A model generated the notes under the pieces. It had not been told where the DNA came from. It was given only the letters and a program-made list of their open reading frames with translations, and searched no databases. Shown piece by piece: positions 18,155 to 43,640 of a stretch of DNA of 64,000 bases (positions within the stretch are counted from its first letter, which is position 1; every line of letters begins with the position of its first letter). Both the position numbers and the translations under genes were made by a program. The DNA lies in the NCBI GenBank assembly GCA_035606845.1, contig DATNEA010000082.1, forward strand, positions 65,142-129,141. The letters are read 5' to 3'. The stretch comes from Candidatus Angelobacter sp. GTDB lineage: Bacteria > Verrucomicrobiota > Verrucomicrobiia > Limisphaerales > DASXHY01.

Positions 18155-19258
18155 TCAGAAAGTCACCTTCAATGCCTCGCGCTGACTATGCTCGTCGCGC
18201 AAATGGCCGTAGGTCTTCATGCACAAGGCGCCGCCGTCCTGATGCCCTAGCCAGCGCGAGACGGTGGGAATGTCCACGCCCGCCTCGATGCAGCGCGTGG
18301 CGAACAAGTGCCGCAAGTCATGGTGGGTGATGCGTTTCGCGCCAGCCAGCTTCGCCGCCCGGTCAATGGACTTCTGGCACTCGAAAACCTGCATCACGCT
18401 CTTGTCGGCGGACTCATTGGCGCGGTCGGTTCGCATTTTTTCCAGCAGTTCGCGCAAGCTGCTGTTTAGCGGAATCCAGCGGTCTTTGCCGTTCTTAGTA
18501 ATCCGAGCATGCAACAGACCCTTTTCAAAATCCACATCACTCCAAACAACGTGCCGTGCTTCGTCAATTCGCAGACCGGAGAACGCCAGAAACCGGAACA
18601 GGTTCGCGCAATCCTTTGACTGTCCAGCGCCCGAGGTTTCAATATGCTTGGCCATTTCCTGGAACTGCGCCTGCGAGGGCAGGTGCAACTCTTTCGGTTT
18701 GACGCGCCGCCGATCGACGAACTTGGCCGGGTTGTCCACGCGGTAGCCATGTTCAATCGCAATCTCAAAAATCCGGCGCACAATACCCAAGGCTCCGTTA
18801 TATCGGGTGGGGCTGTATTCTTTGCCATAAGCCGCCGCCCATTCATTGCAATCCTTCTGGCTGATTTTGGCGATGTCCGTCGAATACAGTTGCGGCCAGG
18901 TCTTTTTGAGGGCAATCAAGACTTCCTCTTTATAGAGCTTGGTGCGCGGCTTGTTGTTGTGGTCGTCCTCCACTTCCTTTTTGAACATTTCGATGATAAC
19001 TTCGCCTTTGACGGATTGGCCTTTGTTGATGGCCAGTCGGCGGTGGTCTTGCAGGAAGTCGGAGAGTTTGAGTTTGGCAACACTCAGCACGTGCGTGTCG
19101 AGCGAGCGGCGAATTAGCTTGCCATTGACTCGCACTCTCCCAAAATACGTGCCGCTTGGTTTGTAGCGGATGAGATTGGGATACGGTGTTTTAAGCCAAT
19201 CGAGATCGGCTTCGGATTTGGGCTTGCGCTCAGTTGGTAATGGTAATGTGTCTTTCAT
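18155..19258 (-). CDS. tyrosine recombinase/integrase (367 aa) of the left element
   Basis: From ATG 19256-19258 the protein reads MKDTLPLPTERKPK... The catalytic region has LRIDEARHVVWSDV (Arg I), ITHHDLRHLFAT (HxxR) and WLGHQDGGALCMKTYGHL (His, then the nucleophile Tyr). The longer track ORF (to 19948) crosses the tRNA gene and is not credible. Confidence 0.9.
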   Translation of the reverse strand: MKDTLPLPTERKPKSEADLDWLKTPYPNLIRYKPSGTYFGRVRVNGKLIRRSLDTHVLSVAKLKLSDFLQDHRRLAINKGQSVKGEVIIEMFKKEVEDDHNNKPRTKLYKEEVLIALKKTWPQLYSTDIAKISQKDCNEWAAAYGKEYSPTRYNGALGIVRRIFEIAIEHGYRVDNPAKFVDRRRVKPKELHLPSQAQFQEMAKHIETSGAGQSKDCANLFRFLAFSGLRIDEARHVVWSDVDFEKGLLHARITKNGKDRWIPLNSSLRELLEKMRTDRANESADKSVMQVFECQKSIDRAAKLAGAKRITHHDLRHLFATRCIEAGVDIPTVSRWLGHQDGGALCMKTYGHLRDEHSQREALKVTF

Positions 19259-19351
19259 AGCAGGAGAAACATACCATATACAAATTGAGTATGCAAGCCC
19301 TTTAAAGCCTCCGCGAAAACATTGAAAATCGCCAATGTTTTCAAGGTAAAA

Positions 19352-19426
19352 GCCAATGTAGCTCAGTGGTAGAGCAACGGTTTCGTAAACCGTCGGTCGC
19401 CGGTTCAATCCCGGCCATTGGCTCCA
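19352..19426 (+). tRNA. tRNA-Thr (anticodon CGU), CCA encoded
   Basis: Hand-folded cloverleaf: acceptor gccaatg/cattggc, D stem gctc/gagc, anticodon stem acggt/accgt with loop ttCGTaa, T stem gccgg/ccggc with loop ttcaatc, discriminator t, then cca. Confidence 0.9.
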
Positions 19427-19496
19427 CTTCTTTGCAACTGTCTTGCAGGGACTTAGGAAGCATGGTTTGTCCACCTTCAGTGAAAGTTTCAGCGTA
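19404..19496 (+). repeat. copy T of the tRNA-3-prime-end plus trailer repeat (candidate attL)
   Basis: ttcaatcccggccattggctcca is followed 65 nt after cccggccat by cttcagtgaaagtttcagcgt. The same two blocks recur with 64-nt spacing at 34401 and 43518. Confidence 0.6.
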
Positions 19497-19600
19497 TTAG
19501 CTGCTCTGGCACCGTTCGGCATTGCTCGCCGACCGCTCCGCCACTGCTCGCTAACACAAACTTTCCGGGCTGTTTTACGCTCACAACCGTGAGTGATGAA

Positions 19601-20608
19601 ATGAAACAGCGTTACCGATTGTTTAAGCGAGGGTGGGGCACGTACTATTTTCAAGACGTTGAGACGGGCAAACAGGAGAGTCTTAAAACCCGAGACAAAC
19701 ACCAAGCCCGCACACTCGTTCATACGATGAACGAGGCCGTGCGGCAGCCGATGCTGAATTTGGACATTGCGCGCGCTTACTTGAAAGGTTCCGACTCGGG
19801 ATTTAATTCTCGGACTTGGGCGTGGGTGATGGAGAGAGCGGGGGAAGGCAAGCAGGGCGCCACAAAGGAACGGTGGCTTCGCGCGGTGGCGGAAAAGCCG
19901 TTCGATATAATTCGCGATCTCAAGCTGACGGAAACGAAGGCGGAGCATTTGTTGAGCGTCCTCAAAGAGGGGACGGTTTCCACAAACATTTTCTTACGTC
20001 GACTGCACAACTTCGCGCTCGATATGAATTGGCTTTTGGCGCCGATCATCCCGCGGCGTCAGTGGCGTCCGGTGAAATTTCAGGAAAAGCGCGCGATCAC
20101 ATTGGATGAGCACCAGAAAATCTTAGCTGGCGAACGCAATGAGGAATGGCGCGCCTTTTACGAGATGCTGTGGCACCTGGGAGGCTCTCAATCAGACGTG
20201 GCCACACTTCAGGCTGAAAACGTGGATTGGAAAAATCGAACGATTGCCTATTCCCGCATGAAGACGGGCAGCCACGCGCTTATCCGATTTGGCGAAAGTG
20301 TTGGGCGGATCCTTCAATCGCGTCCCAGGAAAGGGTTGCTTTTTCCTCAAATTGGAAGTTGGAAGGAATCGGATCGAGCAAAAGCTTTTTCACGTCGGAG
20401 GGCGCTGGTCGGAATCAACGGAATTACGTTGCATTCCTACCGGTACGCCTGGGCGGAGCGGGCTCTCACCGCCGGTTATCCGGAGCGCTACGCTCAGCAG
20501 GCCCTCGGGCATCGGAGCAGGGCTGTTCACACTGCTTATGCCCGCCGCGCGCTGGTGGAGGTTCCGTCATTGGAGCAATATGAGCAACCTGAGCCGAGCC
20601 CAAGGTGA
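19601..20608 (+). CDS. tyrosine recombinase/integrase of the tRNA-Thr island
   Basis: MKQRYRLFKRGWGTYYFQD... The C-terminal catalytic region has ITLHSYRYAWAERAL (HxxR-like) and QQALGHRSRAVHTAYARRA (His, then Tyr). ATG 19601 is preferred over the track GTG at 19589. It lies 175 nt downstream of the tRNA 3-prime end. Confidence 0.85.
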   Translation: MKQRYRLFKRGWGTYYFQDVETGKQESLKTRDKHQARTLVHTMNEAVRQPMLNLDIARAYLKGSDSGFNSRTWAWVMERAGEGKQGATKERWLRAVAEKPFDIIRDLKLTETKAEHLLSVLKEGTVSTNIFLRRLHNFALDMNWLLAPIIPRRQWRPVKFQEKRAITLDEHQKILAGERNEEWRAFYEMLWHLGGSQSDVATLQAENVDWKNRTIAYSRMKTGSHALIRFGESVGRILQSRPRKGLLFPQIGSWKESDRAKAFSRRRALVGINGITLHSYRYAWAERALTAGYPERYAQQALGHRSRAVHTAYARRALVEVPSLEQYEQPEPSPR

Positions 20609-20768: not shown

Positions 20769-21326
20769 TTAGGATTGCGACCATGATTTAAAATCTTTGT
20801 GCTCACATTGAAGGCTTTCTTCCATTTCCAATGCGGCGACGACCGCTGCACTCTTTGCCCGTCCTGTATGAAATTTGGCTGCATCGGCCGGCGTGAGTTT
20901 CTGGGCGTCTTTGCTGCTCTCCTCCAAAAACCAAGCCAACAATGGTTTAATCCAAGTTCCAAACTGTTGAGGCTCCGGCTGCGGTGATATTGCCATCATT
21001 TGTTCAGCCAAACCAACGAGCACACCGGCGTGTTGAGGAGACTTAAAAGGATCGAAATCAGCGCCAACAAAATATTTCCAAAACTGTTTGGAAGCTGCGA
21101 TCGCCCAATCAGGCATAGGAATTCCCAAGTTCATTCCCAACCCGGCAAACAAGCCAGCAAGCTGATCGTCGGGGAGCTCGGGTGCTAAAATCCTCAGGTG
21201 TTCTAAGGGCGTTTTCTGTTCAAATTGTTTGATAAGGGCGGAAATATCAATTTGGACGGGTTGGTCCTCGCCAGGTTTTTCGTGCTTCTCTGCCCCGGCA
21301 CCTCCCTCATTTTCTGATGATTCCAT
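20769..21326 (-). CDS. hypothetical protein (185 aa, acidic N-terminus)
   Basis: Clean ORF, MESSENEGGAGAEKHEKPGEDQP..., divergent from the three STAND genes. No domain recognised. Confidence 0.55.
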   Translation of the reverse strand: MESSENEGGAGAEKHEKPGEDQPVQIDISALIKQFEQKTPLEHLRILAPELPDDQLAGLFAGLGMNLGIPMPDWAIAASKQFWKYFVGADFDPFKSPQHAGVLVGLAEQMMAISPQPEPQQFGTWIKPLLAWFLEESSKDAQKLTPADAAKFHTGRAKSAAVVAALEMEESLQCEHKDFKSWSQS

Positions 21327-21601
21327 AGCATTATTAGAATGAACAACTGTACTTTTTCAAGTTTAGAACATTATCCAAATGCCGTCCCGCCCCGCGCGCC
21401 TGACATTTCGCAACAAATCCATGTTTTGGACCATTCGAATAAATCGCATTTTCACGCCTGTAGGATGAACAATGTTCGAATCTTGATTGCTTGGCAATTC
21501 GCACCCAATTCAAATAATATGGTCTCGGGAGGGCACAGGGATGAGCTCTGGCTTCCTAATGCTGGACCGACGCTTAACGGCACACCCACTCCAATGGAGC
21601 C

Positions 21602-22051
21602 ATGAACCAACTAAACAGAATTGAACCCGCGCATATTGAACGGCTAACCCCCGATCAACTGATTCGTCTGCTCAATTTGCTCCTGCACGCAGAAGCAAAA
21701 GAAAGATTGCTCGCCGTCCACGGCATACATGTTCCATTCCAGATAAATGTACCAGACGGGGGGCGTGACGGCAGGTGGGTGGCAGATATTGGTGAATACG
21801 AATATATTCCCCGCAAGATCAGTTATTATCAGAGCAAAGCGCAATCGTTGAGCGACAGCCAGTGCCGTGCGGAAATCCTCCGAACTGACGAGCCAGGGAA
21901 ATACGTGCTAAAGGAAAAAGTTCAAGAGGTGCTTGAAAGTGGCGGTGCTTATGTGCTTTTTAGCAGTCATCCGTGTGTAAAAATCGATGAAAGAATCAAG
22001 GCCTGTCGCGATGCTCTGCGCGATGCCGGCCGAGTTAATCCGGAAAAATGA
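21602..22051 (+). CDS. STAND gene 1, N-terminal piece: Mrr/PD-(D/E)xK-like nuclease domain, separated from the rest by a 1-nt frameshift
   Basis: LTPDQLIRLLNLLLHAEAK ... INVPDGGRDGRW (D at 21755) ... ISYYQSKAQ (QSK at 21830-21838) matches the order and spacing of the Mrr-type D...(E/Q)xK motifs. Reading stops at TGA 22049-22051 immediately after an A5 run (22044-22048). Confidence 0.7.
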   Translation: MNQLNRIEPAHIERLTPDQLIRLLNLLLHAEAKERLLAVHGIHVPFQINVPDGGRDGRWVADIGEYEYIPRKISYYQSKAQSLSDSQCRAEILRTDEPGKYVLKEKVQEVLESGGAYVLFSSHPCVKIDERIKACRDALRDAGRVNPEK

Positions 22052-25000
22052 TTGTATCGAATTTTTGGATGCCAATCGTATTGCGAACTGGGTTAACCTT
22101 CATGCCTCGGCATTCGCATACGTCTCTCAGGTAACGGTTTTCCAACAAGTCGGACTCCGCAGCGTCGAGGCATGGGCGGAGGACGCGATGTTCGAATACC
22201 AATTCCAACAGAACGAATACCTGACGGCCCAAATTTGCGGCCTGCGCGAATGGCTATTAAAGCCGAAACGAGTTGCGAGGATTACCGGTCCGACGGGCCT
22301 GGGTAAAACCCGATTGGGTTATGAAACATTTGGTTGCGCTCAAGTCGGAGATGATAAAATCCGGCAAGCATTGTGTGGGGCTGCCGCTTATGTTGACGCC
22401 CAGATGTACGGCACTCTGGTACTCGGTTGGGTCGATCAAATGTGCCAACTCGGCTATGGGGGTGTTATTATTGTCGATAATTGCCCCTACGAATGGCACC
22501 ACCAACTCGCATCAATAGTCCAGCGACAAAATAGCCGGTTGAACCTTTTAACGCTCGATTATGTCCCCGAGTATGGACAACCCGATATCCTGCACATTGA
22601 GCTCAACCCGGAAAAACTGCGCGATATTGTTCCAAAAATTCTCAAATCCGTTCCTGACTTGACCCATCTTGATGATGCCCAGATTGAAAGGGTATCCAAT
22701 TTTGCGCAGGGTTTTCCGCAGATCGCAATACTCACAGCTAAAGCCGGTCGAGCTCTCGAAATTCGGCACCTTAACAGTCAAAATGGCCTGGCGGACCGGC
22801 TCCTATGGGGGAGGAATGCGCCGGACCCTCAAGCGCGTGAATTTGTGCGATGCCTCGCTTTATTTTCGTCCGTTGGCGCGCAAGGCAACTATAAGCATCA
22901 ATTGGATTTTATAAGAGAAGCCCTTTGCAAAGGCGTTTCAGAATACGACTTCAATCGAGTAACCAAACAGTTTTATGAAAAGAAGATTCTCCAGAGAGCC
23001 GGTGATTTCATAATGGTTACACCCCCACCGTTAGCGGTAGCACTTGCCGCGGAATGGTTGTCCGATGCCCCCGACGACCATGTCTTAGCTCTTTTTCCTG
23101 GATTCGAGGAGCATAAATTAACCAACGCCTTTTGCAGCCAACTGCGGCTGTTGGACTTTTCACCGAGGGCTGAGGAGTTAAGCAGAAAACTATTGGGGCC
23201 CGGCTCCCCTCTTTCCGTAGCGGAAGTTTTGGATTCTGAAGTGGGTTCACGAATCTTCCGCGCACTTTCGGAACTGAACCCCTTAGCCGCCACCGATTGT
23301 TTGTATCGCATATTCTCGACTTATTCGCCGCAACAAACCAAATCGATTGTTACCGGACGCAGGAATATCATTTGGGCATTGGAAAAGTTATGCTGGTCGA
23401 TTGACACTTTTTCAAAGGCTGCGACTGTCCTTCTTTTGTTCGCAGCGGGTGAGAATGAAACATATGCAAATAGTGCGACTGAGCAGTTTAAACAATTGTT
23501 TCATGTATTTCTTTCTGGAACGAAGGCACCTCCCGAATTACGTTTAGATGTAATCAAGACGGGCCTAAAATCTACCCATCCTGAGGTTCGTGCTGTTTGC
23601 ATCCAAGCTCTGGGCTCCGCACTTCAACATGGTCACTTTTCACGCTCGTCAGGTCCTGAGGCAAGGGGAACGCGTTTGCCGGAAAAAGATTGGGAGCCTA
23701 AGTTGTGTACTGACATTTGGAATTATTGGAGGGAAGTATTCCAGCTTCTCAAGGATCAGATTTTTTCAAAGGGAGATTTAGCGTCAATTGCGGCGCACAC
23801 CCTTGGAGAGAACACGGGTGCGTTTCTTGGCAATCCTCTGCTCTTGGAACTTGAAGGTGACTTCAAAAAGCTCGCTCAATCCCAAAACGGCTATTGGCCG
23901 GAGGCTCGCGAGCAAATCACAAGTTTTCTGAGTCACACAAAGGATCTCCCCGACAATGCCAAAACTGCTCTAAGACGGTGGTTGAGCTATGTGCAACCAA
24001 CTGATCTGAAAAGTCGATTTTTAGACATCGTTTCGCTCCCGGGCTGGCACCACGAAGAGGCGGAGGGGGGAGGGTATGTAGATGTGTCGGCACATCAGGC
24101 GGAGGCGTTTGCTGAAGAACTTTACAAAAATGGAGTCGATTGGGACGAATTCATTCCAATGCTCCTTCAAGGTGACCAACGGCAAGCATGGCAATTTGGG
24201 GTGCGATGTGCTCAGCTTGACAAAGATGTACAAGGGCTAGTCACAAAATGTTTGGACTCCTTACGAGCAATAAGAAAGGAAAACCAGAATCCCCAACTCC
24301 TGCGTGGCATTCTCTCCGCAATTGAGGACAAGGGATATGTGGAACGGGTGCTTGATCTTGTGGCAAAGGACGACGCCTTGGTTTTCATTTTAGTGCCACT
24401 GACAATCGCGATCGCACCCACACTCGCCGACTTTGACCGAGTGACCACACAGATCAAATTATCTCGGCTTCCACCTAATACCGTGTACGGATTCGGCTTC
24501 GGTTCGGTCACCAAGAATTTTGACGACGATGCCTATAGCGCGCGGCTCGAAGACCTTTTCAAAACCGTACCGGAAAGTGCCACAGCAATATTGCAACTTA
24601 TAGACGCGCAGTGCTTTCTTCATCCCGAGAAAACCAAGTCTTATCGCAAGTTGATGAAATCGCTCTTGCTGTTGCCCGAGGTTTTGTCAAAGGGTCGAAG
24701 TACTAGAACTGGATACGAGTGGCAAGAAAACGCAAAAAAGATCCTGAGTGACACATCGGATGCCAATTGGGTTCGAGAGTTGACGAAGGTTCTCATAGCA
24801 GCAGCAAAGGACAGGCTGATTATGCCGTGGGCCAGCGACAATATTCATCCAATCATCAGCCTTCTTCTCGAAAAACATTCCGATATTGTTTGGCCTGTTT
24901 TCCTCGACACATTTAACCATACTGAAGTTGGCGAATATTATTATTTAATAAAATTGCTTACCGAGGGAGGGAGCTCTTTCGAAAATCATGGATCACCAAT

Positions 25001-25388
25001 TTGGAATTTGCCATCAGACAAGTTGAGGCCCTGGGCTGAAGCAAACCCACAAGTTGTTCCTGGCCTTCTGCACTTTATGGCCCTTTACTTTGTGCAGCAA
25101 TCAACGAACGGAAGCGAAGAGTTCTGTTGGCACCCACACTCCCTAATTCTTCTTGGGATTGGCGAAGTTGATGAAGTGATCGGCTGTGTGCACGCAAATC
25201 TCGCCTCGTTTGGTTCCTCCGGTTCGAGAGTTCCGTATATCGAAAAGCGAATTGTCCTCGTAAATAAACTGCACTCTGCTGGAGACAAGCGGCTATCCCA
25301 TATTGCGGACACCGTAATTGGATTCTTGATGCAATCTCTGGAAAGCGCGAGGAAGCAGGACGAGCATCACGCGGCGGGAATTTACTAG
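21987..25388 (+). CDS. STAND gene 1, main piece: P-loop NTPase plus a long helical-repeat region (continuation of 21602-22051 in the +1 frame)
   Basis: Walker A ITGPTGLGKTRL (22287-22310), Walker B-like GGVIIVDNC, then about 800 aa of helical repeats. The sequence NDCIEFLDANRIANWVNLH just after the frameshift point matches equivalent segments of genes 2 and 3. The true start of a stand-alone version is uncertain. Confidence 0.8.
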   Translation: MKESRPVAMLCAMPAELIRKNDCIEFLDANRIANWVNLHASAFAYVSQVTVFQQVGLRSVEAWAEDAMFEYQFQQNEYLTAQICGLREWLLKPKRVARITGPTGLGKTRLGYETFGCAQVGDDKIRQALCGAAAYVDAQMYGTLVLGWVDQMCQLGYGGVIIVDNCPYEWHHQLASIVQRQNSRLNLLTLDYVPEYGQPDILHIELNPEKLRDIVPKILKSVPDLTHLDDAQIERVSNFAQGFPQIAILTAKAGRALEIRHLNSQNGLADRLLWGRNAPDPQAREFVRCLALFSSVGAQGNYKHQLDFIREALCKGVSEYDFNRVTKQFYEKKILQRAGDFIMVTPPPLAVALAAEWLSDAPDDHVLALFPGFEEHKLTNAFCSQLRLLDFSPRAEELSRKLLGPGSPLSVAEVLDSEVGSRIFRALSELNPLAATDCLYRIFSTYSPQQTKSIVTGRRNIIWALEKLCWSIDTFSKAATVLLLFAAGENETYANSATEQFKQLFHVFLSGTKAPPELRLDVIKTGLKSTHPEVRAVCIQALGSALQHGHFSRSSGPEARGTRLPEKDWEPKLCTDIWNYWREVFQLLKDQIFSKGDLASIAAHTLGENTGAFLGNPLLLELEGDFKKLAQSQNGYWPEAREQITSFLSHTKDLPDNAKTALRRWLSYVQPTDLKSRFLDIVSLPGWHHEEAEGGGYVDVSAHQAEAFAEELYKNGVDWDEFIPMLLQGDQRQAWQFGVRCAQLDKDVQGLVTKCLDSLRAIRKENQNPQLLRGILSAIEDKGYVERVLDLVAKDDALVFILVPLTIAIAPTLADFDRVTTQIKLSRLPPNTVYGFGFGSVTKNFDDDAYSARLEDLFKTVPESATAILQLIDAQCFLHPEKTKSYRKLMKSLLLLPEVLSKGRSTRTGYEWQENAKKILSDTSDANWVRELTKVLIAAAKDRLIMPWASDNIHPIISLLLEKHSDIVWPVFLDTFNHTEVGEYYYLIKLLTEGGSSFENHGSPIWNLPSDKLRPWAEANPQVVPGLLHFMALYFVQQSTNGSEEFCWHPHSLILLGIGEVDEVIGCVHANLASFGSSGSRVPYIEKRIVLVNKLHSAGDKRLSHIADTVIGFLMQSLESARKQDEHHAAGIY

Positions 25389-25454
25389 TCAGAATGAATT
25401 GGAGCGGGCCTCCATCTATCGACACATAGGCATAAGCTAAACCCTGACTGACCG

Positions 25455-27266
25455 ATGACGACACTTGATAAATTGCGGGATCTGAATGATGGCCAATTTC
25501 ATCGATTGGCGGATGCCATTCTCAAGCGAGTCGAGCCGAGATTCCGTAATCTTCGCACCCATGGTGTAAATGACAATGGGGTCAGCATCAAAGGACAGCC
25601 AGACTCTTATGTCGGAAACTCAGCTCGTTCTTGCACAATTGCTTTTTGTTATACCGTCGACACTGGAGATTGGTGGAATAAGCTCTGCAGGGATATTTCA
25701 TCAGCTCTGAATACATCTCCTAATATTTGCGAGCTTGTTATAGCCCTTCCGCGAGACGTCGACCGCGAGGGTCCAAAGGATAAAACGATTGATTGGGAGG
25801 GAAGACTCAACGCTGCGGCTGGAAACAAGTCTGTCACGATTTTTGACGGTCGACGGCTTTCGGCTTTGCTCGATGAGAAATATCAAGATCTAAGATATGA
25901 ACATTTAGCAATCCCGTTTTCCCGGCTATCGAATGAGGTTGTTATCGCCAGTTGCCAAACAGTGAATCAAATCACAATTGACGACTTAAAGACAAAGGGC
26001 CGGTTCGACCCCGAACACTACGTATTCAGACAAGCAGATGGTCAGCTAAAGCAACTGTGGAGAGAAGCGTTTGGGTCTCGAAAAGGATGCAGATTGATTC
26101 CTGTGGTAAATGACTCCGGCCTCGGCAAGACGAGTCTGCTTTGCTCTTTTGTCGACTCTTCCGGGGGAAGTGTGCCAATTCTCTTTTTGCAAGCCAGGGA
26201 CTCGGATTTCCACGCCGAGGACGTGCTGGTGCGGATGGTTATGCAGAAATTGCAAGGCGTTCTTTCGCAGGAGTTGCAAAAGCAGGAAGAGGTCGCTTTG
26301 ACAAAAGTTATCGACGATCTCGGCGCTCTCACTGTTGTGCTGGATGGTTTGGACGAGGTCAGGAATTCCTCAAACGTTAGACGCGCACTAAAATTCTGGT
26401 TCGAATCCACAATCGGAGCGGTGAGTGTTTTGATCGTTTCTTCCAGACCGGATTTTTGGCGAAGATGCTCGGAAGGATCGTGGGCCCGCTGGATATCCTA
26501 TTCTAATTCCAATGTTCGCAAGACAACAGAAACGTCCCGTGAGCAGACGATTCTGCCCGAAAAACGAATCCTTGGATACAGCTTACCCGAAAGGTTTTCA
26601 CCCGACGAATTGAGCTTGGCATGGAGCAAGTTTGGCCTCGACCCAAGTGATCTGGCAAAGGCCTCAAACGACATTCGGCAGGAATTGTCTCACCCCTTCA
26701 CACTTAGAGCTTGGATTGATATTGCTACGGATCGGAGTGCGGCGAAACTTCCCAGCACACGAGACGAGATAATCGAGACCTGGATTTGGCACCGTTTGGA
26801 GCAAGAAGCTGATACGGCTGCTCGGATTTCTAAAGAACTTCTTTGGGCTGTTTTGCTGCAAATCGCAAGACGCATTAACGAAGCAGGTGAGTCTTGCATT
26901 TCGATTGATGCATTGACTGATATTGCCCGATTCGATCCTACTCATCCACCCGGCGAAGTTGTGGAGCGATTAATCAACGCACATTTATTGGAGTTTCTCG
27001 AAGAGAAGAGAGATTTTATCCGATTTGTTTTTGATACTGTCTACGAGTTTTTCCTTGCAGAAGCTGATGTTGAAGACATTAAAACTGATATTCAAAGCGT
27101 AGTTGCCTCAATTGGGAAAATGACATTTTCGCGTACAGCAACACGGTTAGGGCGAATTGGATTTCGTATTGCCGGCAGGAGACGCGTTTGCAATTGCTCT
27201 CGCCAGCCACGATTGTGCGAAATCGCTTGTACTCATTCAGGGAAGGCCTCAAAAGTTTTCTGCTGA
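25455..27266 (+). CDS. STAND gene 2, N-terminal piece: degenerate Mrr-like N-domain plus a NACHT-type NTPase; the last roughly 38 codons are out-of-frame read-through
   Basis: FHRLADAILKRVEP...KGQPDSYVG. Walker A NDSGLGKTSLL (26109-26132), canonical NACHT Walker B LTVVLDGLDEV, VLIVSSRPD, and winged-helix motif FIRFVFDTVYEFFLAEAD. The tail RIGFRIAGRRRVCNCSRQPRLCEIACTHSGKASKVFC looks non-protein-like. Confidence 0.8.
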   Translation: MTTLDKLRDLNDGQFHRLADAILKRVEPRFRNLRTHGVNDNGVSIKGQPDSYVGNSARSCTIAFCYTVDTGDWWNKLCRDISSALNTSPNICELVIALPRDVDREGPKDKTIDWEGRLNAAAGNKSVTIFDGRRLSALLDEKYQDLRYEHLAIPFSRLSNEVVIASCQTVNQITIDDLKTKGRFDPEHYVFRQADGQLKQLWREAFGSRKGCRLIPVVNDSGLGKTSLLCSFVDSSGGSVPILFLQARDSDFHAEDVLVRMVMQKLQGVLSQELQKQEEVALTKVIDDLGALTVVLDGLDEVRNSSNVRRALKFWFESTIGAVSVLIVSSRPDFWRRCSEGSWARWISYSNSNVRKTTETSREQTILPEKRILGYSLPERFSPDELSLAWSKFGLDPSDLAKASNDIRQELSHPFTLRAWIDIATDRSAAKLPSTRDEIIETWIWHRLEQEADTAARISKELLWAVLLQIARRINEAGESCISIDALTDIARFDPTHPPGEVVERLINAHLLEFLEEKRDFIRFVFDTVYEFFLAEADVEDIKTDIQSVVASIGKMTFSRTATRLGRIGFRIAGRRRVCNCSRQPRLCEIACTHSGKASKVFC

Positions 27267-29265
27267 CACGTTGCAGACGATTTTCAATAAATGCAGGGAA
27301 TCTTTCTGGAAGTCGAGGCGCCCTGAAATGGCTTTTTTGATCGAGCGTATGGGATATGTCAACTGCGACGAAGCGCGGGCGACCTTGACCAAATTGGTTA
27401 TCCCATGGGAGCATTGTCCGTACGGATTACATATAGTGGCTTCATATAGCATCATCCGCCTGAGTCTTGTTCCCGGTATACCGCTTCTCGTCAAGGCTTG
27501 CTGGTGGTTTGATGGAATCCATTCATATTACCATCAGAATATTCTCTCTCTTGTGCGCAATGCTTCGGAGGAATTCAAACGGGCGTTCGCCACAGAGGCG
27601 ATGAACCTGTTAAAAGCTCCTTCTGAGAGTATCGAGCACGCTAAAGGCGCGTGCATATTGGGCTATCTCGGCGACAATCGCCTTGTCGCACACCTGGACG
27701 AGAGACTTCAGGCCAACAACAGGTTATTCGGATACGAAAACCATGCTCTTTTCGCTGTTGGAACGCAGGCTGCCACGGAAGTATTTGTGAAAGCCGCAAA
27801 TCAAACAGCAACTAAAATTGAAGCAATCCGTAAAGAAAATGAGGATGCGGCCGCCATGCTCTGGTACGATGTGGCTTTGAGGAGTGCTGATCTCCGTCAT
27901 TTAGTTACAGAACCATTTGAAAAATGTCTTTTATCTCTTATCGATAGCGGCATAACGATAGTAGTTCGTTTCGCGACAGATTTGTCATTTTCGAGCAGAC
28001 GTCCGGTTTTGCTGCGACGGATAATATTCTCGGAGAAGGAAACTGCGTCCAGATGGCTTTATGAAGACGATTTAAGCGAGGCCATACCGATTTCCGATTG
28101 GCTCGACTGGTGGGCTTCTGCAACGTCGACCACAATCAAAGCTTCCATTTTGAAATTGACAGGTAAGGTGCCAGATCTTCGCGTTGAAGATATTGCTATC
28201 GAGTGTTTGAAGGTCCCGGAGCTGCGATCCGGCGCCGCTTATGCTCTCGCACGTGCTGGGACTCTCCGATGCTTGACTCGTTTGAGAGAAACATTGAATT
28301 CTGTGGACATTAAATCTTCAGATTCTTTTTCCTTCCTCTTTAGCGCAGTTCAGGCGCTGGGCAATCTTCGCGATAAAGATGCAGTTGAGTTGCTTGGGCG
28401 AATTGCTGAAGACGAACAAAATGCCATTCGGCAATTTGCTCTCGATGCTTTGGCGAAGATCGGGACCGACGAGGCCGCTGATGTTTTGATTAACCTTTCG
28501 AAAAGCGCCAAATGTAGTGACAAACATAAGGATTTTATTATTGAATCCCTAATCGCGCACGGCAGCGCGCTTACGGTAGGGAGAGCCATTGAAATTGCAA
28601 GGGGGCGAGCTGGAGGTCCGAAATGGTTGGTTCAGCAGATAAAGTATGTGTTTAGACTCCGCGGTTGGAAAGTGGGCGAGTATTACGCCCACGTGCACGA
28701 TAAAGAACTCGTTGAATATTTAGCCTCTGCCGAAAGCAGCATGGATCCGACAGAACGAAGGGATCTGCTAAAGTCTTTTGAACAAATTGACAGTCAGAAT
28801 GTACGTCGAATTCTCTGGGTTTTCGCGAACCGGGTTGGAACGAATGAAGATGTCAAAGTGGTTCTCCTCAAAAATCATGATGGTATAATGCTCAGCTCGG
28901 AAGCGTTGGAAGAACTAATTAATAGGGCTGACGAAGGAACACTGCCTCATGTAATTGGATCAGCGTTGAGGTGCAAGGATGGGATTTTCACCCGTAATGT
29001 GGAGCGAATGGCCAAATTCCCAAGTGCCTTGATTATTCGCGAAGTAAAGAGGCAGCTTGCAGTTGCGGGCCGGCCTGCAGAGCAGACAGCTCGTCTATTA
29101 TCGATATTTGGAGCTTATGGAAACTCCACAGACATAGGTGATGCCACACCTTTTCTAGATATGCCTGATGAATCCGTCCGCAACGTTTCCTATGAAACGA
29201 CAACGCTTTTACTCGACCCCCTTCGTATTGCCGAAGGATGGAGAGAAATGTATTTTGGCGCTTGA
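27157..29265 (+). CDS. STAND gene 2, C-terminal piece: HEAT/ARM-like repeat region (continuation of 25455 in the +1 frame)
   Basis: The track start is a TTG three codons (two sense codons, GGC GAA) after an in-frame TAG. Textbook HEAT/PBS-lyase-type repeats, e.g. VQALGNLRDKDAVELLGRIAEDEQNAIRQFALDALAKIGTDEAADVLINL (about 28346-28495). Removing one G from ggg 27150-27152 fuses it to the upstream ORF as ...TRLGELDFVLPAGD... Confidence 0.8.
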   Translation: MDFVLPAGDAFAIALASHDCAKSLVLIQGRPQKFSADTLQTIFNKCRESFWKSRRPEMAFLIERMGYVNCDEARATLTKLVIPWEHCPYGLHIVASYSIIRLSLVPGIPLLVKACWWFDGIHSYYHQNILSLVRNASEEFKRAFATEAMNLLKAPSESIEHAKGACILGYLGDNRLVAHLDERLQANNRLFGYENHALFAVGTQAATEVFVKAANQTATKIEAIRKENEDAAAMLWYDVALRSADLRHLVTEPFEKCLLSLIDSGITIVVRFATDLSFSSRRPVLLRRIIFSEKETASRWLYEDDLSEAIPISDWLDWWASATSTTIKASILKLTGKVPDLRVEDIAIECLKVPELRSGAAYALARAGTLRCLTRLRETLNSVDIKSSDSFSFLFSAVQALGNLRDKDAVELLGRIAEDEQNAIRQFALDALAKIGTDEAADVLINLSKSAKCSDKHKDFIIESLIAHGSALTVGRAIEIARGRAGGPKWLVQQIKYVFRLRGWKVGEYYAHVHDKELVEYLASAESSMDPTERRDLLKSFEQIDSQNVRRILWVFANRVGTNEDVKVVLLKNHDGIMLSSEALEELINRADEGTLPHVIGSALRCKDGIFTRNVERMAKFPSALIIREVKRQLAVAGRPAEQTARLLSIFGAYGNSTDIGDATPFLDMPDESVRNVSYETTTLLLDPLRIAEGWREMYFGA

Positions 29266-29531
29266 TTTCCGATTCCAAAGTTGTGTGGAAACACAGGGCT
29301 AAAATTTTAACTTCATCTGTGTCGCAATTCATGCACTAGAATACGAGATTTAGACGGTTTGGAAAGATTCGCGAAATGCTAAAAATCGCAGCCACTCGAA
29401 GGTGCAATGTGCCTGCGCGGGCGTCGAAATTGTCTCCATGGGGCGATGAATTGACTCCGAGCAATCGGATTCCTAAGACGTCAGGGGAATTGCCTTCTGA
29501 CTCGCCCTTTTAGAACTTCCAATTATTATAT

Positions 29532-32500
29532 ATGCTTCGATTTTTTGGACCGGGACGTGTGAATACCCAACGACTCAAAATCAAAGAAGCGATTCAGGTT
29601 CTGCTTGAGGCCCAAAATCACAGGGCATTCCAAAGAATCGCCATACATCTTGCTAAGAAGAAGTGGCCGGAACTCCAGGCAACGGAAGAACAAAGCGATG
29701 GCGGCGAGGACGCCACTTCCTTCGAGGCGAGCGCAGACGGTCGCCGGCGGCGAGTTGCTGTTTCGCTCACCGGCACGCTGGCGAAGATTCGCCTGGACGC
29801 CGGACGCATTCGAGAGCGAGGCGTCAAACTTGACACTCTCGTGTTCATCACACCCGTTGCCATAAACAATGTAACCGTTGCCGAATGGGCCGAAGAAATT
29901 CTCAAGGAATTTGGGCACGAACTCCATGTCATCGAGCAAGCCGAGATTATCACGCTGCTCGAGGAACCCGAGAACCGCTGGTTGTGTAAGGATTTCTTAG
30001 GCCTCGACTTCACAATCGAGTTGCCGATCGCGCGTTTGCTGACTGCTGTGAGAACGGCTGCAGCGCAGGTCCTCAGCGGCTGGAAAGCTGCGCATCGTTT
30101 CGACGATGCAAAGGCCATTGAACTCACCCTCTTAATTTCACGAGCCCGGGAGTCTGGGAAAACGACGGATGAGGTTCATCGCGTGGGTGTTGACGATTTG
30201 TGCCGCATGGCTCTTGATCGGCGAAGAGCTGCGCTGTCCGGTGGACCCGGCGCAGGTAAAACTTTTACCTTGATTCAGAGTGCCGACGCGCTGCTCCAAA
30301 AATTAGATGGGCCGATTCCCATTCTTATCCCTCTGCCTATTTGGGCGGCATCAGGGAAGTCGCTGCTTGAGTTCATCGAGAGCCAATTTCATGGCAACGA
30401 GGCCAAGGGCGAGGATTTGGCAAAACTCTTTGCGCTAGGCCACGTGGCGCTTTTGCTTAATGGTTGGAACGAGGTGCCCGATTCTTCTGTCGAACGGACT
30501 GCTTCCGAATTAAACGCGTTGGCGTTGCACTACCCAAGCCTTTCCATCTTCATATCAACGCGCAATTCAAGGTCATCTCTGCCCCTTGCTGCCGATGTTG
30601 ATATTTACGTCGCTCCGCTGTCGCGCGAACAAAAGGTGGCGATGGTGAAGAAAACTGGCCATCAAAGCCCTGAGGCGTTTGAGCGCGAATTGGAATCGAA
30701 TCACGCTCTTGCAACCATTACGGGGACGCCGTTATTTCTTAGTGCTGCAATTGCGATCTCGCTCTCCGGTGAAAAGCTTTTGCAGACGCGATATGGCCTT
30801 TTGGCACAGGTCATCGAACATTTTGAAAAGAGTAACGAGCATGCAGGGGCTCTGAGAAATCCTCCGTGTAGCTCTTTTCACCGGCGCTACCTTGAAGCGA
30901 TCGCGCTGAAAATGACGCAAGATGGAGGGACGACCCTCACGTTCGACGAAGCAACGTCTGTGATCGCTCAGTGCACGGTGGTGCTTCGCGCCGAGGGGCA
31001 CTTTGAAAAAGCCCCGAATTCCGCAGAAGTGTTGGATTGTTTGGTGCGGCATCATCTCCTCGTGCTCTCACCCCTATCCCCGGGGTCTTATCGTTTCATT
31101 CACCAGCAATTTCAGGAGTGGTTTGCTGCGGAAGCCTTGCGGCGCATTATCGCGGCGCTTGGCGGCAACCCTGACCAGGAGAAGGTGTTCGCTTTTCAGC
31201 GCGACTTTTTAAACCGCTTCCAATGGCAAGAGCCGCTGGCATTCCTGCTTGACCGATTGGCAACCGGGGGCGAAGCAGAAATTTCCACCGCTGCGAACAT
31301 CATTCATTGGGCCATGCTCGTGAACCTGTCGATTGCAGCAGAGCTCGCGGGGGTTGCCGGAGAGAAGGTCTGGGAAAAGGTGTGCGATGAATTGGGAAAG
31401 GCATTACGGGCTTGGTTTGAGAAAAGCGGGAAAGACTGCCGCGGCCCTGCGCTGGCTGCCATGCTTGCTACCGGCAGCTCCGACTTTCAGGATATCATAT
31501 GGCCGCTCATCGAATCGAACTCCCAGAACACGCGGCTTTTTACCTATCGCCTGTGGCGGCCCTTTCCCCTCTCATCGTTGGGACCGAAGTGGAAGGAAAG
31601 ATTTATCAAATGGGACAGCAAGCAAAAGATTGAATTCCTCCATCAGTTTTCGTGGGAACCGCGTCGGGAACACGTTTTCCTCGCCGAAGAATTGTTAAGG
31701 GGCGCAGAGCCGCCCGAAGTGAAATTCGTGTGCTTTGAAGTGCTGCTTAACTTTGGCGCCTATGATCTCATCCTCACCCTTTCAAAAAATGCCGAGGTAA
31801 AGGAATGGCCTAAGGGATTCGCGAAGCACATTTTGTTTAGTCTGCCTCGTCGCTATCTCGCTCCGCTTCTCATGAAAGCCAAAGCGGCACTGCCTTCCAT
31901 TCAATCAATTGGTGCGCGCCACGCGATCATCGCAACGCTTAAAAGGAATGACGATGCTGATTGGCTAGATTTGATGAAGCACGAGGTTCAGTCTTTACTA
32001 AGCAACGAGGAACTGGATTTCCGGGCGCTGAATGACTACCCGCAACGATTCGGCTCAAAGCCAAAGCCAAACGCCGGACCTTATTTGGCTGAGTTTCTCT
32101 CAGCGATTGCGGAGAAAGATCCGGAATGGGTTTCTGCTTTCGTGGCAGAGACAATGACGAAGGGACGTCTCTGGAACGATCCGTTTTTGAATTATCTTCT
32201 CAAAATGAGCGCCGGCGAAGCGGAGCGCGTGACTGAAGCGGCCCTGCAGAAGGATCTTGAGCCGGGTTTGACCCGCTCGCGGTGCGCTGTCCTCGCTCCG
32301 GTTGGCTCGTTTATTTTTGCAAAGGCTTTGCTCACGAATTTCTTGGCATATGAGACCAACAAGGGGAAAATGCCGAACCGCAGCCCGATGGATCGAGGAG
32401 ATGCGTTGCGAAACGCGATTCAAGCGCTTCCCATCAACTGTCTCGCCGACGCAGTCCTCGATGTGGCAAAAGGCAACCGCGATGCTGGATCAGTCCGCAG

Positions 32501-34133
32501 TATCGTAAAGCTCTTATCACAATTGCCTCTCATGGAGGCATCCGTCGAACGGAAGACAGCGTTACGTTCGCTCGCACTCGAAGTCGCTAAGGAAACAGCT
32601 GCTGATGCAGACGAGCGTGAATGGATTCATGCCGAGCTCGCGGACATTCTTGGCCGAGTTGGGCAGCCGGGCGATGCGCAAATAATCGAAAAATGGCTTC
32701 TCGAAGATGTTAGACGCATGACCGAGGCGGCCGAGCGGCAACAAGCGGCATTACAAAAGTGGATGTCGGAAGGGCGTAAGGGACCTCATCCGAACAGGGT
32801 CATGCCTCTCTATTTGTGGAACTATTATCAGCGGGCGCTTATTCAATTTGGAGGTAAGGAAGCTGCGGACGCTTTCATTCGGCTGTTGGAGGCGCCTTCC
32901 CTTCTGGGAGACGCAGCTGGTGGACTTTATTCATTAAGTCGCGATGCCAATGGAAAGCGCGATTCGGGTTTCGGGAACCGTCCGGACTATGCCGGTGTTT
33001 GGCAACGGCAGCAGAGCAGTGTTGCCCAAACTGGAACTGCTAAGAATTACGTGGACAAAATTTTCAATGCCATCCAACGTGACTTGCCGGAGTTTGAGAA
33101 AAATGGATCAGGGTATCTAAAGAACGGTCTCCTCAGCGCTGTCTCGGTCCTTGCTGCGCTGAATGATCTGCGGGCAATTCCTCTTCTAACGCGCTTCGCA
33201 TCCGAGAAATATTCTTCTGGGATGGTGATGAATGGATTTCACACACTCATGCTTCAGGGAACTGTTCTCTCAGGCGATGAGATGACAGCCTTTTTGGATC
33301 GGTTCATTGAGGAACAAGAAAAAGAACACCGCAGCTCAAATAATGATACGTGGTATCTAGTGGTGCGGGCGATCGCGATACTTCTCTTCAGCGACAAACC
33401 AGCCTTGGGCATTGCGCGCATTCGTAAATTACCGGAATACAGGCTGAAGAATTATTCTGTTCGTGACGTGTTAGGCCTGCTTGGGGCCTCTCAAGTGCCA
33501 GAGGCAATCGACCTCATTGTCGAGCTCGCACTCAAACCGGAAATCAACGAACACTACATGTATGAGGTGGCAACCGTGTTGTCGAAGAGCCACAATCCGG
33601 CGGCCGAGGGAGCCCTCGTCAAGCTCCTGGATAAATTCTGTTCTGGAGAATTAAACTCACACGACGCGCACTCTCATTTTCCGAAAGCATTCGCTCAAGC
33701 GGCGAAAAGCGAAGGAAGGATTTGGCAGGAAATAAAGCGGAGATGCGCAAATGTGGGATCGACGCACGAGCGCAAGGTATTGCTTTCCATTCTTAGCGAA
33801 GCCGATGGGCTGGATATATCTGGTTGTCTTTGCGATTTAATCGACCCCGAACTCCCCTTCGGCTACGCGGCTGAGCATGTAATTGAAGAAAGCGTCACAA
33901 GGAGAGTGCCCGCCGGCGGGACCTCCTGTTACATCAAACCGCGCGAAGCGTCGGACTTCAAAAAGCGGCTAATTAATATCGCCAACTCCGATGTCAACCG
34001 GAAGGCGAGCGCCACTCGTCTGCTGGATATAATTGGCCGTGTTCGGACCGAATACGGTTGGCCCGCAAATGAGCCATTCCATCCTGATATTGAGTTGTTG
34101 AAGAAGCTTGGCGGTCCGTGGGAGCTGTTTTAG
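29532..34133 (+). CDS. STAND gene 3 (1533 aa): degenerate Mrr-like N-domain, NACHT-type NTPase with an Asn-substituted Walker B, and a very long helical/HEAT-like repeat region
   Basis: FQRIAIHLAKKKWPELQATEEQSDGGEDA...VAVSLTG. Walker A LSGGPGAGKTFTL (30240-30263). HVALLLNGWNEV sits where NACHT has hhhhDGhDE. Also SIFISTRNS and winged-helix YRFIHQQFQEWFAAEAL, followed by more than 1000 aa of helical repeats. Confidence 0.85.
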   Translation: MLRFFGPGRVNTQRLKIKEAIQVLLEAQNHRAFQRIAIHLAKKKWPELQATEEQSDGGEDATSFEASADGRRRRVAVSLTGTLAKIRLDAGRIRERGVKLDTLVFITPVAINNVTVAEWAEEILKEFGHELHVIEQAEIITLLEEPENRWLCKDFLGLDFTIELPIARLLTAVRTAAAQVLSGWKAAHRFDDAKAIELTLLISRARESGKTTDEVHRVGVDDLCRMALDRRRAALSGGPGAGKTFTLIQSADALLQKLDGPIPILIPLPIWAASGKSLLEFIESQFHGNEAKGEDLAKLFALGHVALLLNGWNEVPDSSVERTASELNALALHYPSLSIFISTRNSRSSLPLAADVDIYVAPLSREQKVAMVKKTGHQSPEAFERELESNHALATITGTPLFLSAAIAISLSGEKLLQTRYGLLAQVIEHFEKSNEHAGALRNPPCSSFHRRYLEAIALKMTQDGGTTLTFDEATSVIAQCTVVLRAEGHFEKAPNSAEVLDCLVRHHLLVLSPLSPGSYRFIHQQFQEWFAAEALRRIIAALGGNPDQEKVFAFQRDFLNRFQWQEPLAFLLDRLATGGEAEISTAANIIHWAMLVNLSIAAELAGVAGEKVWEKVCDELGKALRAWFEKSGKDCRGPALAAMLATGSSDFQDIIWPLIESNSQNTRLFTYRLWRPFPLSSLGPKWKERFIKWDSKQKIEFLHQFSWEPRREHVFLAEELLRGAEPPEVKFVCFEVLLNFGAYDLILTLSKNAEVKEWPKGFAKHILFSLPRRYLAPLLMKAKAALPSIQSIGARHAIIATLKRNDDADWLDLMKHEVQSLLSNEELDFRALNDYPQRFGSKPKPNAGPYLAEFLSAIAEKDPEWVSAFVAETMTKGRLWNDPFLNYLLKMSAGEAERVTEAALQKDLEPGLTRSRCAVLAPVGSFIFAKALLTNFLAYETNKGKMPNRSPMDRGDALRNAIQALPINCLADAVLDVAKGNRDAGSVRSIVKLLSQLPLMEASVERKTALRSLALEVAKETAADADEREWIHAELADILGRVGQPGDAQIIEKWLLEDVRRMTEAAERQQAALQKWMSEGRKGPHPNRVMPLYLWNYYQRALIQFGGKEAADAFIRLLEAPSLLGDAAGGLYSLSRDANGKRDSGFGNRPDYAGVWQRQQSSVAQTGTAKNYVDKIFNAIQRDLPEFEKNGSGYLKNGLLSAVSVLAALNDLRAIPLLTRFASEKYSSGMVMNGFHTLMLQGTVLSGDEMTAFLDRFIEEQEKEHRSSNNDTWYLVVRAIAILLFSDKPALGIARIRKLPEYRLKNYSVRDVLGLLGASQVPEAIDLIVELALKPEINEHYMYEVATVLSKSHNPAAEGALVKLLDKFCSGELNSHDAHSHFPKAFAQAAKSEGRIWQEIKRRCANVGSTHERKVLLSILSEADGLDISGCLCDLIDPELPFGYAAEHVIEESVTRRVPAGGTSCYIKPREASDFKKRLINIANSDVNRKASATRLLDIIGRVRTEYGWPANEPFHPDIELLKKLGGPWELF

Positions 34134-34520: not shown

Positions 34521-34758
34521 GCGAGTTGATTTAACGCAGGATTGAAAAAGTCCGAATTGGCTGACGCAAAACGGCAGAAAGTATGGCGGGGAGTGGCATA
34601 CGGGCAGAAAGCACGGACAGCGGATAATCACCGTTGACAAACGTGGAGCAAGTGGAGCGGCTGACAGTTTCACTGACAATGGAAGATTGCAGTGAGAGTG
34701 TGGGCAAAACGCTGGCCATTAGAGGCTGAGAGGAGAGGGGCGGATCGAACTGTTGTCC

Positions 34759-35532
34759 CTACCACAGCAAGGCGGAGTGCTGCTTGAGCCATTTTTCGGC
34801 CAAATGATAGTCAGGACAGACTTGCTTAACTTCCCGCCAATATCGGGCCGAATGATTCATCTGACGCAAATGCATCAATTCATGAAGGATAATGTAATCG
34901 CGAACGAATTCCGGCGTTTGTATCAATCTCCAGTTAAGCGAAATTGTGCCTCGCCGTGAGCATGACCCCCATCGAGACCGTTGATTGCGGACAGTGATTT
35001 GATTGACCGTCAATTGGTGGATTGCCGCGTGTTCGAAAACTTTTGGAGGAAATTCTTTCGCTGCCATGCGCCAGAGGTGCTTTTCGATTGCCGGGCGAAG
35101 ATCAGTCTCAGAACGGGATATCTTAATCTGTTCACTCCCGAATCGGACAACGATGTTCTCCCCATTTGTTTCCGTTTCGATTTTCACTGGCTTCCCCTGA
35201 AAATAAAATTCCTTTCCCGGCAGCCACTTTTCCTGCCCGTTGGAATGTCCATCCGATCGCAGCAATTGTCGTTCAAGCCATGCTGAATTGCGTTCGGCGA
35301 ACCGGCGAGCTTCCGATTCGGAACCGCCTCGCGGAACGGTCACTCTCGCCGCGCCGTTCGGACGCAGTCGAAGCACGTAACGGCGGGCGCGAGGATTTCG
35401 CACCAGAACCAGAGGAATTCGGCGACTGCCGATCGTCAGGAATTCCTCTAGCGAGGATTTTCTGTGAGGTCTTGAGAAAAAATCGAACTGCACCTGCTGA
35501 GTAGAGATAACGCGACTCAGTTTGGCAAACAA
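34759..35532 (-). CDS. YgjP-like metal-dependent hydrolase (DUF45/WLM-like, HExxH)
   Basis: RSRWGSCSRRGTISLNWRLIQTPEFVRDYIILHELMHLRQMNHS is the hallmark DUF45 C-terminal region with HELMH. Confidence 0.8.
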   Translation of the reverse strand: MFAKLSRVISTQQVQFDFFSRPHRKSSLEEFLTIGSRRIPLVLVRNPRARRYVLRLRPNGAARVTVPRGGSESEARRFAERNSAWLERQLLRSDGHSNGQEKWLPGKEFYFQGKPVKIETETNGENIVVRFGSEQIKISRSETDLRPAIEKHLWRMAAKEFPPKVFEHAAIHQLTVNQITVRNQRSRWGSCSRRGTISLNWRLIQTPEFVRDYIILHELMHLRQMNHSARYWREVKQVCPDYHLAEKWLKQHSALLW

Positions 35533-43511: not shown

Positions 43512-43640
43512 GATTGACCCGGCCATGGACTCAACTCTTAACAATGCAGTGCCAAGTGGTTACAAGTGGGGCAGGGGAGGGCTTCAGTGAAAGCTTCAGT
43601 GTTTGTTGATCAATCAATGGCGGGCTTCTGTCGGTGCCTG
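43512..43640 (+). repeat. copy B of the tRNA-3-prime-end plus trailer repeat
   Basis: See copy A. It also shares 19 of 21 nt (cttcagtgaaagcttcagtgt) with the trailer of the real tRNA-Thr, at the same offset from cccggccat. Confidence 0.8.

Follow-up and report, generated by a model that had tools for sequence, protein, structure and literature searches.

The 64,000-nucleotide (nt) stretch of contig DATNEA010000082.1 analysed here (the window) very probably carries a small, partly decayed defence islet, in which a tyrosine integrase follows a tRNA-Thr gene with anticodon CGT and is itself followed by three independent STAND proteins of the Avs or bacterial NLR type that would act as phage sensors. 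The three sensor genes (genes 1, 2 and 3; Table 1) lie on one strand, are separated by spacers of 66 nt (25389-25454) and 266 nt (29266-29531), and share a common order of an N-terminal restriction-endonuclease-like domain, a STAND P-loop NTPase and a long helical-repeat region. An earlier interpretation made from the DNA letters (the sequence-only reading) had described three giant same-strand genes with these spacers and with corrected lengths of 1261, 1269 and 1533 amino acids (aa), and the open reading frame (ORF) map and homologues confirm that description. Its comparison of the genes with Avs and bNACHT phage sensors is also borne out, by a match of gene 1 to the PADLOC model PD-Lambda-4_A, by structural matches of genes 2 and 3 to NLRs and Avs4, and by relatives with Pfam NACHT domains. 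The Walker A motifs that it placed in the three genes are exact on translation: GPTGLGKT at 22287-22310 in gene 1, NDSGLGKT at 26109-26132 in gene 2 and GGPGAGKT at 30240-30263 in gene 3.

Gene 1 is, on the evidence of sequence profiles, a collinear member of the characterised Avs8/PD-lambda-4A family, where the sequence-only reading had found none of the three genes assignable to a characterised family. PD-lambda-4A has been renamed Avs8; its Mrr nuclease and STAND NTPase form one fusion protein, which the phage major capsid protein activates (bioRxiv 10.1101/2025.07.02.662641; bioRxiv 10.64898/2026.01.04.697583); the E. coli and Klebsiella proteins are credited in later papers to Vassallo et al. 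2022. Reconstructed gene 1 matches the PADLOC profile PD-Lambda-4_A (PDLC03991) with E = 8.8e-71 and ~237 bits, its residues 7-713 falling on profile positions 6-718, and intact homologues cover positions 5-1271 (P0098) and 3-1278 (P0165) of the 1283 in the profile. Like Avs8, gene 1 begins with an Mrr-type domain bearing DGGxD ... QxK and continues with a STAND P-loop NTPase and then a large helical sensor. The N-domain reads PDGGRDG ... YYQSK, which is the Mrr catalytic motif, with D52, D56, Q77 and K79 invariant in 41 relatives; family invariants also include Walker A GxxGxGK(T) and Walker B VVDNC. Gene 1 differs from Avs8 in that the relationship is distant, being a profile match only (~237 bits), in that its host belongs to the Verrucomicrobiota rather than the Gammaproteobacteria, and in that it has no detected Avs8B-like partner: no ORF neighbouring gene 1 matches Avs8B (PD-Lambda-4_B) in PADLOC, and no conserved neighbour occurs in related loci L009 or L094. 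The window copy is, moreover, frameshifted between nuclease and NTPase. Against PDB sequences, the gene 1-family profile gives P-loop or chance matches only. Viral contigs yielded no more than three Avs8-like loci and two that weakly resemble gene 3, so phages are not the usual carriers of these families.

Genes 2 and 3 are, by profile comparison, members of two anciently and remotely related families of the NACHT clade. The two families align in hhalign with 98.6% probability (E = 1e-15) over 909 columns at 11% identity, and the alignment spans the N-domain, NTPase and winged helix; neither has detectable profile-level homology to the gene 1 family. The gene 2 Walker B motif VVLDGLDE fits the NACHT signature D[GAS]hDE, and all of 41 relatives keep D297, D300 and E301. 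HEAT repeats reported earlier at about 28346-28495 are recovered by Pfam HEAT_2 at nt 28342-28503 (E = 1.7e-11). The window copy of gene 2 scores 21.6 bits against Pfam NACHT (PF05729), under the cut-off of 26.7, whereas many of its full-length homologues carry precomputed Pfam NACHT and HEAT_2 annotations and some gene 3 relatives exceed the NACHT cut-off. Gene 3 keeps the Walker A Lys, the sensor-1 Arg (STR) and the His of the winged-helix domain (WHD), and its Walker B motif is LLLNGWNE, invariant in 20 relatives, which departs from D[GAS]hDE. This departure is the rule in the clade, for which representatives that could be parsed comprise 76 with NGxNE and 11 with DGxNE. The sequence-only reading had given both genes a Walker B of the hhhhDGhDE type, which is right for gene 2 (DGLDE) and wrong for gene 3 (NGWNE); the winged-helix motifs that it listed are both present with their gene attribution swapped, YRFIHQQFQEWFAAEAL belonging to gene 3 and FIRFVFDTVYEFFLAEAD to gene 2. 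Gene 3 also has an NCAB2 domain (PF22726; 4.6e-11, 43.5 bits against a cut-off of 27) at residues 1451-1521 (nt 33882-34094), which is present in 19 of 20 relatives. A word-index search with 21 matches had made the gene 3 family seem very rare; exhaustive searching overturned this and gives at least 418 clusters (50% identity) at E <= 1e-30.

Structural comparison points the same way for both genes. AlphaFold2 models of gene 2 residues 1-565 and gene 3 residues 1-620, each with a mean pLDDT (predicted local distance difference test score) of 88, were searched with Foldseek. The best match of the gene 2 model is Avs4 (8dgf; E = 6.8e-11), with 571 alignment columns that take in the whole query, followed by NLRP3 (4.6e-7), NLRC4 and NOD2, and the gene 3 model matches NOD2 (7.5e-13) and NLRC4 (1.2e-12) best. 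Both models thus have the predicted fold of animal NLRs, in which a nucleotide-binding domain is followed by helical domain 1 and the WHD. EcAvs4 (PDB 8dgf) has an Mrr-like nuclease, a STAND NTPase and a tetratricopeptide repeat (TPR) sensor bound to the phage portal. Gene 2 resembles it in that the model aligns over its entire length, and differs in that this best structural match has only 10% sequence identity, a TM-score of 0.42 and a root-mean-square deviation of 11.5 A, in that its sensor consists of HEAT repeats instead of TPRs, and in that its NTPase is of the NACHT type. A further parallel in layout may be drawn with bNACHT25, a bacterial NACHT protein with an N-terminal Mrr-like restriction endonuclease effector and a repeat sensor (Kibby et al., bioRxiv 10.1101/2022.07.19.500537). 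Genes 2 and 3 share with bNACHT25-type proteins the position of an N-terminal endonuclease-like effector, the NACHT module and a HEAT-type repeat sensor, to which gene 3 adds its NCAB domain; the comparison is by description and not by direct sequence, and in contrast to those proteins the N-domain lacks (D/E/Q)xK and no PADLOC model applies. The whole gene 3 clade further differs from bNACHT proteins in having [N/D]GWNE in place of the defining D[GAS]hDE.

The N-terminal domains of genes 2 and 3 suggest, from their sequence conservation, an active site that is not the canonical one. The order noted earlier for all three genes, a helix followed by a DGGxD or PDS strand and then a hydrophobic strand, is real in the sequence, and the secondary-structure order in the models of genes 2 and 3 fits an alpha-beta-beta-beta-alpha-beta core. 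The earlier description of the N-domains as Mrr-like applies catalytically to gene 1, the only one of the three with the Mrr Q-x-K, and does not extend to genes 2 and 3. With Pfam at E <= 10, nine N-domains (six of gene 2 or gene 3 type) match no nuclease family, including Mrr_cat, and this holds for gene 1 too. In gene 3 the N-domain reads DGGED ... S78-L-T80 ... K85 ... D89, so that S-x-T stands on the third core strand where (E/Q)xK is expected. Across 112 representatives of the clade, D56, G58, D60, S78, T/S80, K85, D89 and T107 are almost invariant, giving the pattern D-x-G-x-D ... S-x-T ... K-x3-D ... T, with K85 and D89 on the helix after the third strand. In the gene 2 family GQPDS, K76, D80 and E93 are invariant, and IAFCYT occupies the third-strand position. 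Such near-invariance of polar residues implies a constrained active site. Some gene 3 relatives have a PNP_UDP_1 phosphorylase domain in place of the N-domain. PNP_UDP_1 is a known defence effector, and the swap indicates that effectors can be exchanged at the N-terminus, as they are in other Avs and NLR-like proteins.

Genomic context supports a defence role. In the loci examined, most homologues of genes 1-3 have defence genes as neighbours or belong to mobile elements, as the sequence-only reading had supposed. A gene-3-type gene is accompanied by HepT/MNT, AbiEii, PIN, GAPS4 and PLD genes (L008), a gene-1-type gene by AbiJ, SIR2 and Schlafen-like genes (L009), and a further locus has AbiEi/AbiEii neighbours (L095). 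The genes of L008 and L009, at ~15.5-20 kb in two different metagenome contigs, also share a position upstream of a DUF72-LexA-ImuB/DnaE2 cassette, which points to another defence hotspot besides the tRNA site.

The tRNA-Thr junction of the window recurs as an integration site. Its putative att (attachment) core of 31 nt consists of the last 26 nt of the tRNA gene plus 5 nt downstream. An identical core without the tRNA body is found in the nearest genome, the metagenome-assembled genome (MAG) OY969416.1 (L014), at 2283-2313, 7.7 kb upstream of CvfB; this fragment, with 12-mer motif copies on both sides and no integrase near, looks like an att scar, and it indicates that in this lineage the tRNA-Thr end acts as an att core. 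A metagenome scan for the core returned 24 loci, all with the complete tRNA, of which seven have an intR-like integrase (43-60% identity) ~190 nt downstream of the tRNA. At the same junction, the cargo of L122 is a T5orf172/ResIII helicase plus an AAA_21+RloB pair, with a second integrase beyond them. In L124 and L105 the site is empty and the junction runs straight into housekeeping genes, so the junction is a recurrent integration site with variable defence cargo. The integrase of the islet (intR) is 52% identical to the one beside the gene 3 homologue in L012. The arrangement resembles integrase-borne defence islets at tRNA genes (mobile "phage defence elements") in that a tyrosine integrase lies directly past the tRNA 3' end and the cargo varies at the site. 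It differs from them in having a second integrase and a TrwC relaxase element 5' of the tRNA, which may make it composite or rearranged, and in having no detectable right-hand attachment site (attR).

Several observations weigh against the reading of the locus as a defence islet with three phage sensors. Genes 2 and 3 match no model in PADLOC 2.0. Their N-domains lack the canonical (D/E/Q)xK and match no Pfam nuclease family, hhalign relates them to the Mrr domain of gene 1 with only 4-30% probability, and their profiles find only P-loop or chance matches among PDB sequences; they are candidate nucleases by virtue of their modelled fold order and one whole-chain Foldseek alignment. Because its Walker B motif is NGWNE, gene 3 may cycle nucleotides differently from the NACHT proteins described so far. 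The gene 3 homologue in L004 sits amid housekeeping genes. No second copy of the att core was found in the 64-kb window by direct-repeat searches, local alignment or 22-23-mers with up to three mismatches; the extent of the island is consequently drawn solely from the break in synteny at CvfB, and its right border can be placed only between 34134 and 35561. Loss of the right-hand attachment site is probable and would leave the islet unable to excise. The tRNA-Thr island of the sequence-only reading is not cleanly delimited, there being no attR and a second integrase and a TrwC relaxase element across the tRNA.

The altered motifs invite another interpretation, in which the gene 3 clade, and more distantly gene 2, would form a distinct NLR-like lineage with a switch that works without the canonical Walker B aspartates and with an N-domain that is either a restriction-endonuclease fold with a new catalytic arrangement or an effector other than a DNase. 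The consistent [N/D]GWNE of the clade and its S-x-T in place of (E/Q)xK are the features at stake, and we regard the interpretation as doubtful. If it were true, gene 3 would exemplify an effector and a switch mechanism not yet characterised in bacterial NLRs.

The genes might instead serve conflict between mobile elements or element maintenance, for example by excluding rival plasmids or integrative and conjugative elements, rather than phage defence. Gene-2 or gene-3 homologues directly follow TrwC relaxases in three loci (L006, L011, L012), with an integrase or RadC near, and the TrwC relaxase on the other side of the tRNA in the window is 53-57% identical to these relaxases. Other homologues reside in classical defence islands without conjugation genes, the gene 1 family has a demonstrated phage-capsid trigger (Avs8), and mobile elements routinely bear anti-phage cargo, all of which makes a role outside phage defence improbable.

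Genes 1 and 2 are frameshifted. Homologues of gene 1 (~1260 aa) and gene 2 (~1270 aa) are single ORFs that cover 100% of the reconstructions at identities of up to 66% (64-66% for the intact homologues P0098 and P0022), which supports the reconstructed lengths. In gene 1, which occurs as pieces of 149 and 1133 aa and never as an intact single ORF in all assemblies examined, alignment to four homologues shows the lesion to be one extra nucleotide at 22044-22049 (CCG GAA AAA T GAT), and the break falls between nuclease and NTPase. In gene 2, homologue alignment shows that the upstream frame is good to ...FRIAG (27176), after which base 27177 must be skipped, and three codons kept by every relative are absent at the junction; together these amount to an 8-nt deletion relative to homologues, which separates the NACHT module from the HEAT sensor. 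A homopolymer slip in the GGG run at 27150-27152 had been a candidate for the gene 2 lesion and is ruled out by the same alignment, which gives 27177. Contigs of three independent metagenome assemblies (ENA, JGI and Logan) match the window at 100% identity over 16.5-24.6 kb and share both lesions; no intact allele of either gene occurs among the assemblies examined. The frameshifts are real lesions, not something to correct as the sequence-only reading had treated them. Apart from these lesions, no stop codon interrupts gene 1 or gene 2, so their inactivation looks recent; they are most likely pseudogenes, with gene 3 the only intact sensor in the genome.

That the frameshifts are instead functional, through programmed +1 frameshifting, reversible phase variation that limits toxic sensors, or a split into two-protein systems, is quite improbable. 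Both shifts are indeed in the +1 direction, that of gene 1 lies at GAA AAA TGA, which looks slippery and adjoins a stop codon, and both frames are else fully open across 3.8 kb. Every homologue, on the other hand, is an uninterrupted single ORF, the gene 2 deletion has removed three codons as well and has no slippery site, the runs reach only A5, which is too short to slip efficiently, and no stimulatory element is seen at the shifts. The recurrence of identical frameshifted alleles in several assemblies might be taken to favour function, but identical contigs may derive from one clonal population.

Genes 1-3 are three putative, independent single-gene sensors, neither an operon nor the three-paralogue array of the earlier interpretation. 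The proposal that they cooperate as one system, with paralogous sensors acting together from an operon and hence making up the sole cargo, draws on their shared strand, short spacers, common coarse layout and the homology of genes 2 and 3, and is very unlikely given that no two of the three gene types share a locus among nine related loci, each type occurring alone, that gene 1 is not detectably related to the other two, that two of the three genes are frameshifted, and that characterised Avs and bNACHT proteins function as single genes according to the literature.

Table 1. Coordinates of the islet and of flanking features (positions in the window unless a locus is named).
Feature	Position	Strand	Remarks
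tRNA-Thr (anticodon CGT)	19352-19426	+	ARAGORN; Rfam tRNA 72.7 bits; left landmark of islet
Putative att core, 31 nt	19401-19431	+	last 26 nt of tRNA + 5 nt downstream
Tandem 12-mer motif TCAGTGAAAGTTTCAG	19477-19492	+	50 nt past tRNA
Tyrosine integrase intR	19589-20608	+	Pfam Phage_integrase 9e-10
Divergent 185-aa ORF	20769-21326	-	annotated as gene in three assemblies
Gene 1, Avs8/PD-lambda-4A-type STAND	21602-25388	+	corrected 1261 aa; frameshifted
Gene 1 ORF pieces	21602-22051 (149 aa); 21987-25388 (1133 aa)	+	ORF map
Gene 2, restriction-endonuclease-like N-domain, NACHT NTPase, HEAT repeats	25455-29265	+	corrected 1269 aa; frameshifted
Gene 2 ORF pieces	25455-27266 (603 aa); 27157-29265 (702 aa)	+	ORF map
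Gene 3, N-domain, NACHT-like NTPase, HEAT-like repeats, NCAB2	29532-34133	+	1533 aa; intact
Tandem 12-mer motif, inverted copy	34661-34676	-	near probable right end of islet
Tandem 12-mer motif TCAGTGAAANNNTCAG, all copies	19477-19492 (+); 34661-34676 (-); 43584-43599 (+); L014 2154-2169; L014 2361-2376
Tyrosine integrase intL	18155-19270	-	Pfam Phage_integrase 1.5e-23; directly 5' of tRNA-Thr
TrwC relaxase-helicase	10104-13040	+	Pfam TrwC 9e-81
ParA/CbiA-like ATPase	8887-10071	-	left of tRNA
1451-aa protein with DUF900 alpha/beta-hydrolase end	2528-6883	-	left of tRNA

The composition of the islet sets it modestly apart. The segment 19427-34133 has 50.2% GC and the region 35562-64000 has 54.3%, so the AT-richness perceived earlier is present for the segment as a whole; among the three genes, gene 1 (48.8%) and gene 2 (47.7%) are low, and gene 3 (53.1%) is close to the chromosome and does not conform. 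The tandem 12-mer motif occurs in three copies in the window against 0.06 expected, and a similar direct-repeat pair of ~12 nt lies 45-50 nt after tRNA-Thr in 24 of 24 metagenome loci, both those with an integrase behind it and those with none; the motif could serve as an att arm, an element of the tRNA flank or a regulatory site. At ~34700-34772 there is a weak, gappy, inverted resemblance to tRNA-Thr, with a score of 41 against 25 +/- 4.6 for shuffled sequences (reached by 2 of 300), which may tentatively be taken for an att site that has decayed or been inverted at the islet's right end.

Smaller ORFs of the islet add little to this picture. The divergent 185-aa ORF has no Pfam, PADLOC or NCBIfam match and no relative in the loci fetched. 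An 88-aa ORF at 21339-21605 (+) overlaps the start of gene 1 by 4 nt, and within it (21491-21518) falls the promoter-like match that scores best ahead of gene 1. Gene callers left this ORF unannotated in three assemblies, it has no homologues in the fetched loci, and it is probably spurious rather than a gene. Promoter and terminator scans of the islet are uninformative, since their counts are under shuffled expectation. In the whole window, tRNA is the sole Rfam match. NCBIfam matches are confined to phycobilisome-lyase HEAT families and were judged spurious, and megablast of the islet against E. coli genomes gave no match, in keeping with a host outside the enterobacteria.

The islet adjoins other mobile and variable DNA. 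The region left of the tRNA, with its relaxase and ATPase genes and several unassigned genes, looks like an integrative mobilisable element, and intL appears to be part of this neighbouring element; the arrangement of intL (-), tRNA and intR (+) also occurs in L123. Three overlapping ORFs of 384, 193 and 643 aa at 13444-17098 (-), between the relaxase and intL, have no Pfam or PADLOC match and could be further cargo of the left element. The "island" is probably part of a larger composite mobile region of at least 35 kb. To the right, the MAG OY969416.1 is syntenic with the window from CvfB (35562) onwards, with 75-97% protein identity, and shows no synteny leftwards. A YgjP-like metallopeptidase gene at 34759-35532 (-), between the islet and CvfB, is absent at the matching place in this nearest relative and may belong to the variable region. 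The host is a soil member of the Verrucomicrobiota (Limisphaerales-like).

A mode of action can be sketched for the sensors by analogy with characterised Avs and bNACHT proteins, function at this locus being read from sequence and models. The C-terminal helical repeats would bind a conserved phage protein, which for the Avs8-type sensor would be the HK97-fold major capsid protein. Binding of the trigger would free the NTPase from autoinhibition, upon which the protein would oligomerise in a nucleotide-dependent manner. The clustered N-terminal nuclease-like domains might then cut DNA and so abort infection.

The islet is an ordinary one and not a new kind of system, and it leaves the present picture of bacterial NLR-like immunity unchanged; its unusual points are limited to the altered Walker B motif and the non-canonical N-domain in the gene 2/gene 3 lineage. 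It extends the Avs8 capsid-sensor family to the Verrucomicrobiota. It also points out two large NACHT-type families outside PADLOC 2.0, one of which has a consistently altered Walker B motif and a non-canonical nuclease-like effector. Finally, it provides a concrete case of turnover in defence cargo, with two of three sensors recently inactivated at a conserved tRNA-Thr/integrase hotspot that bears other defence genes in related bacteria.

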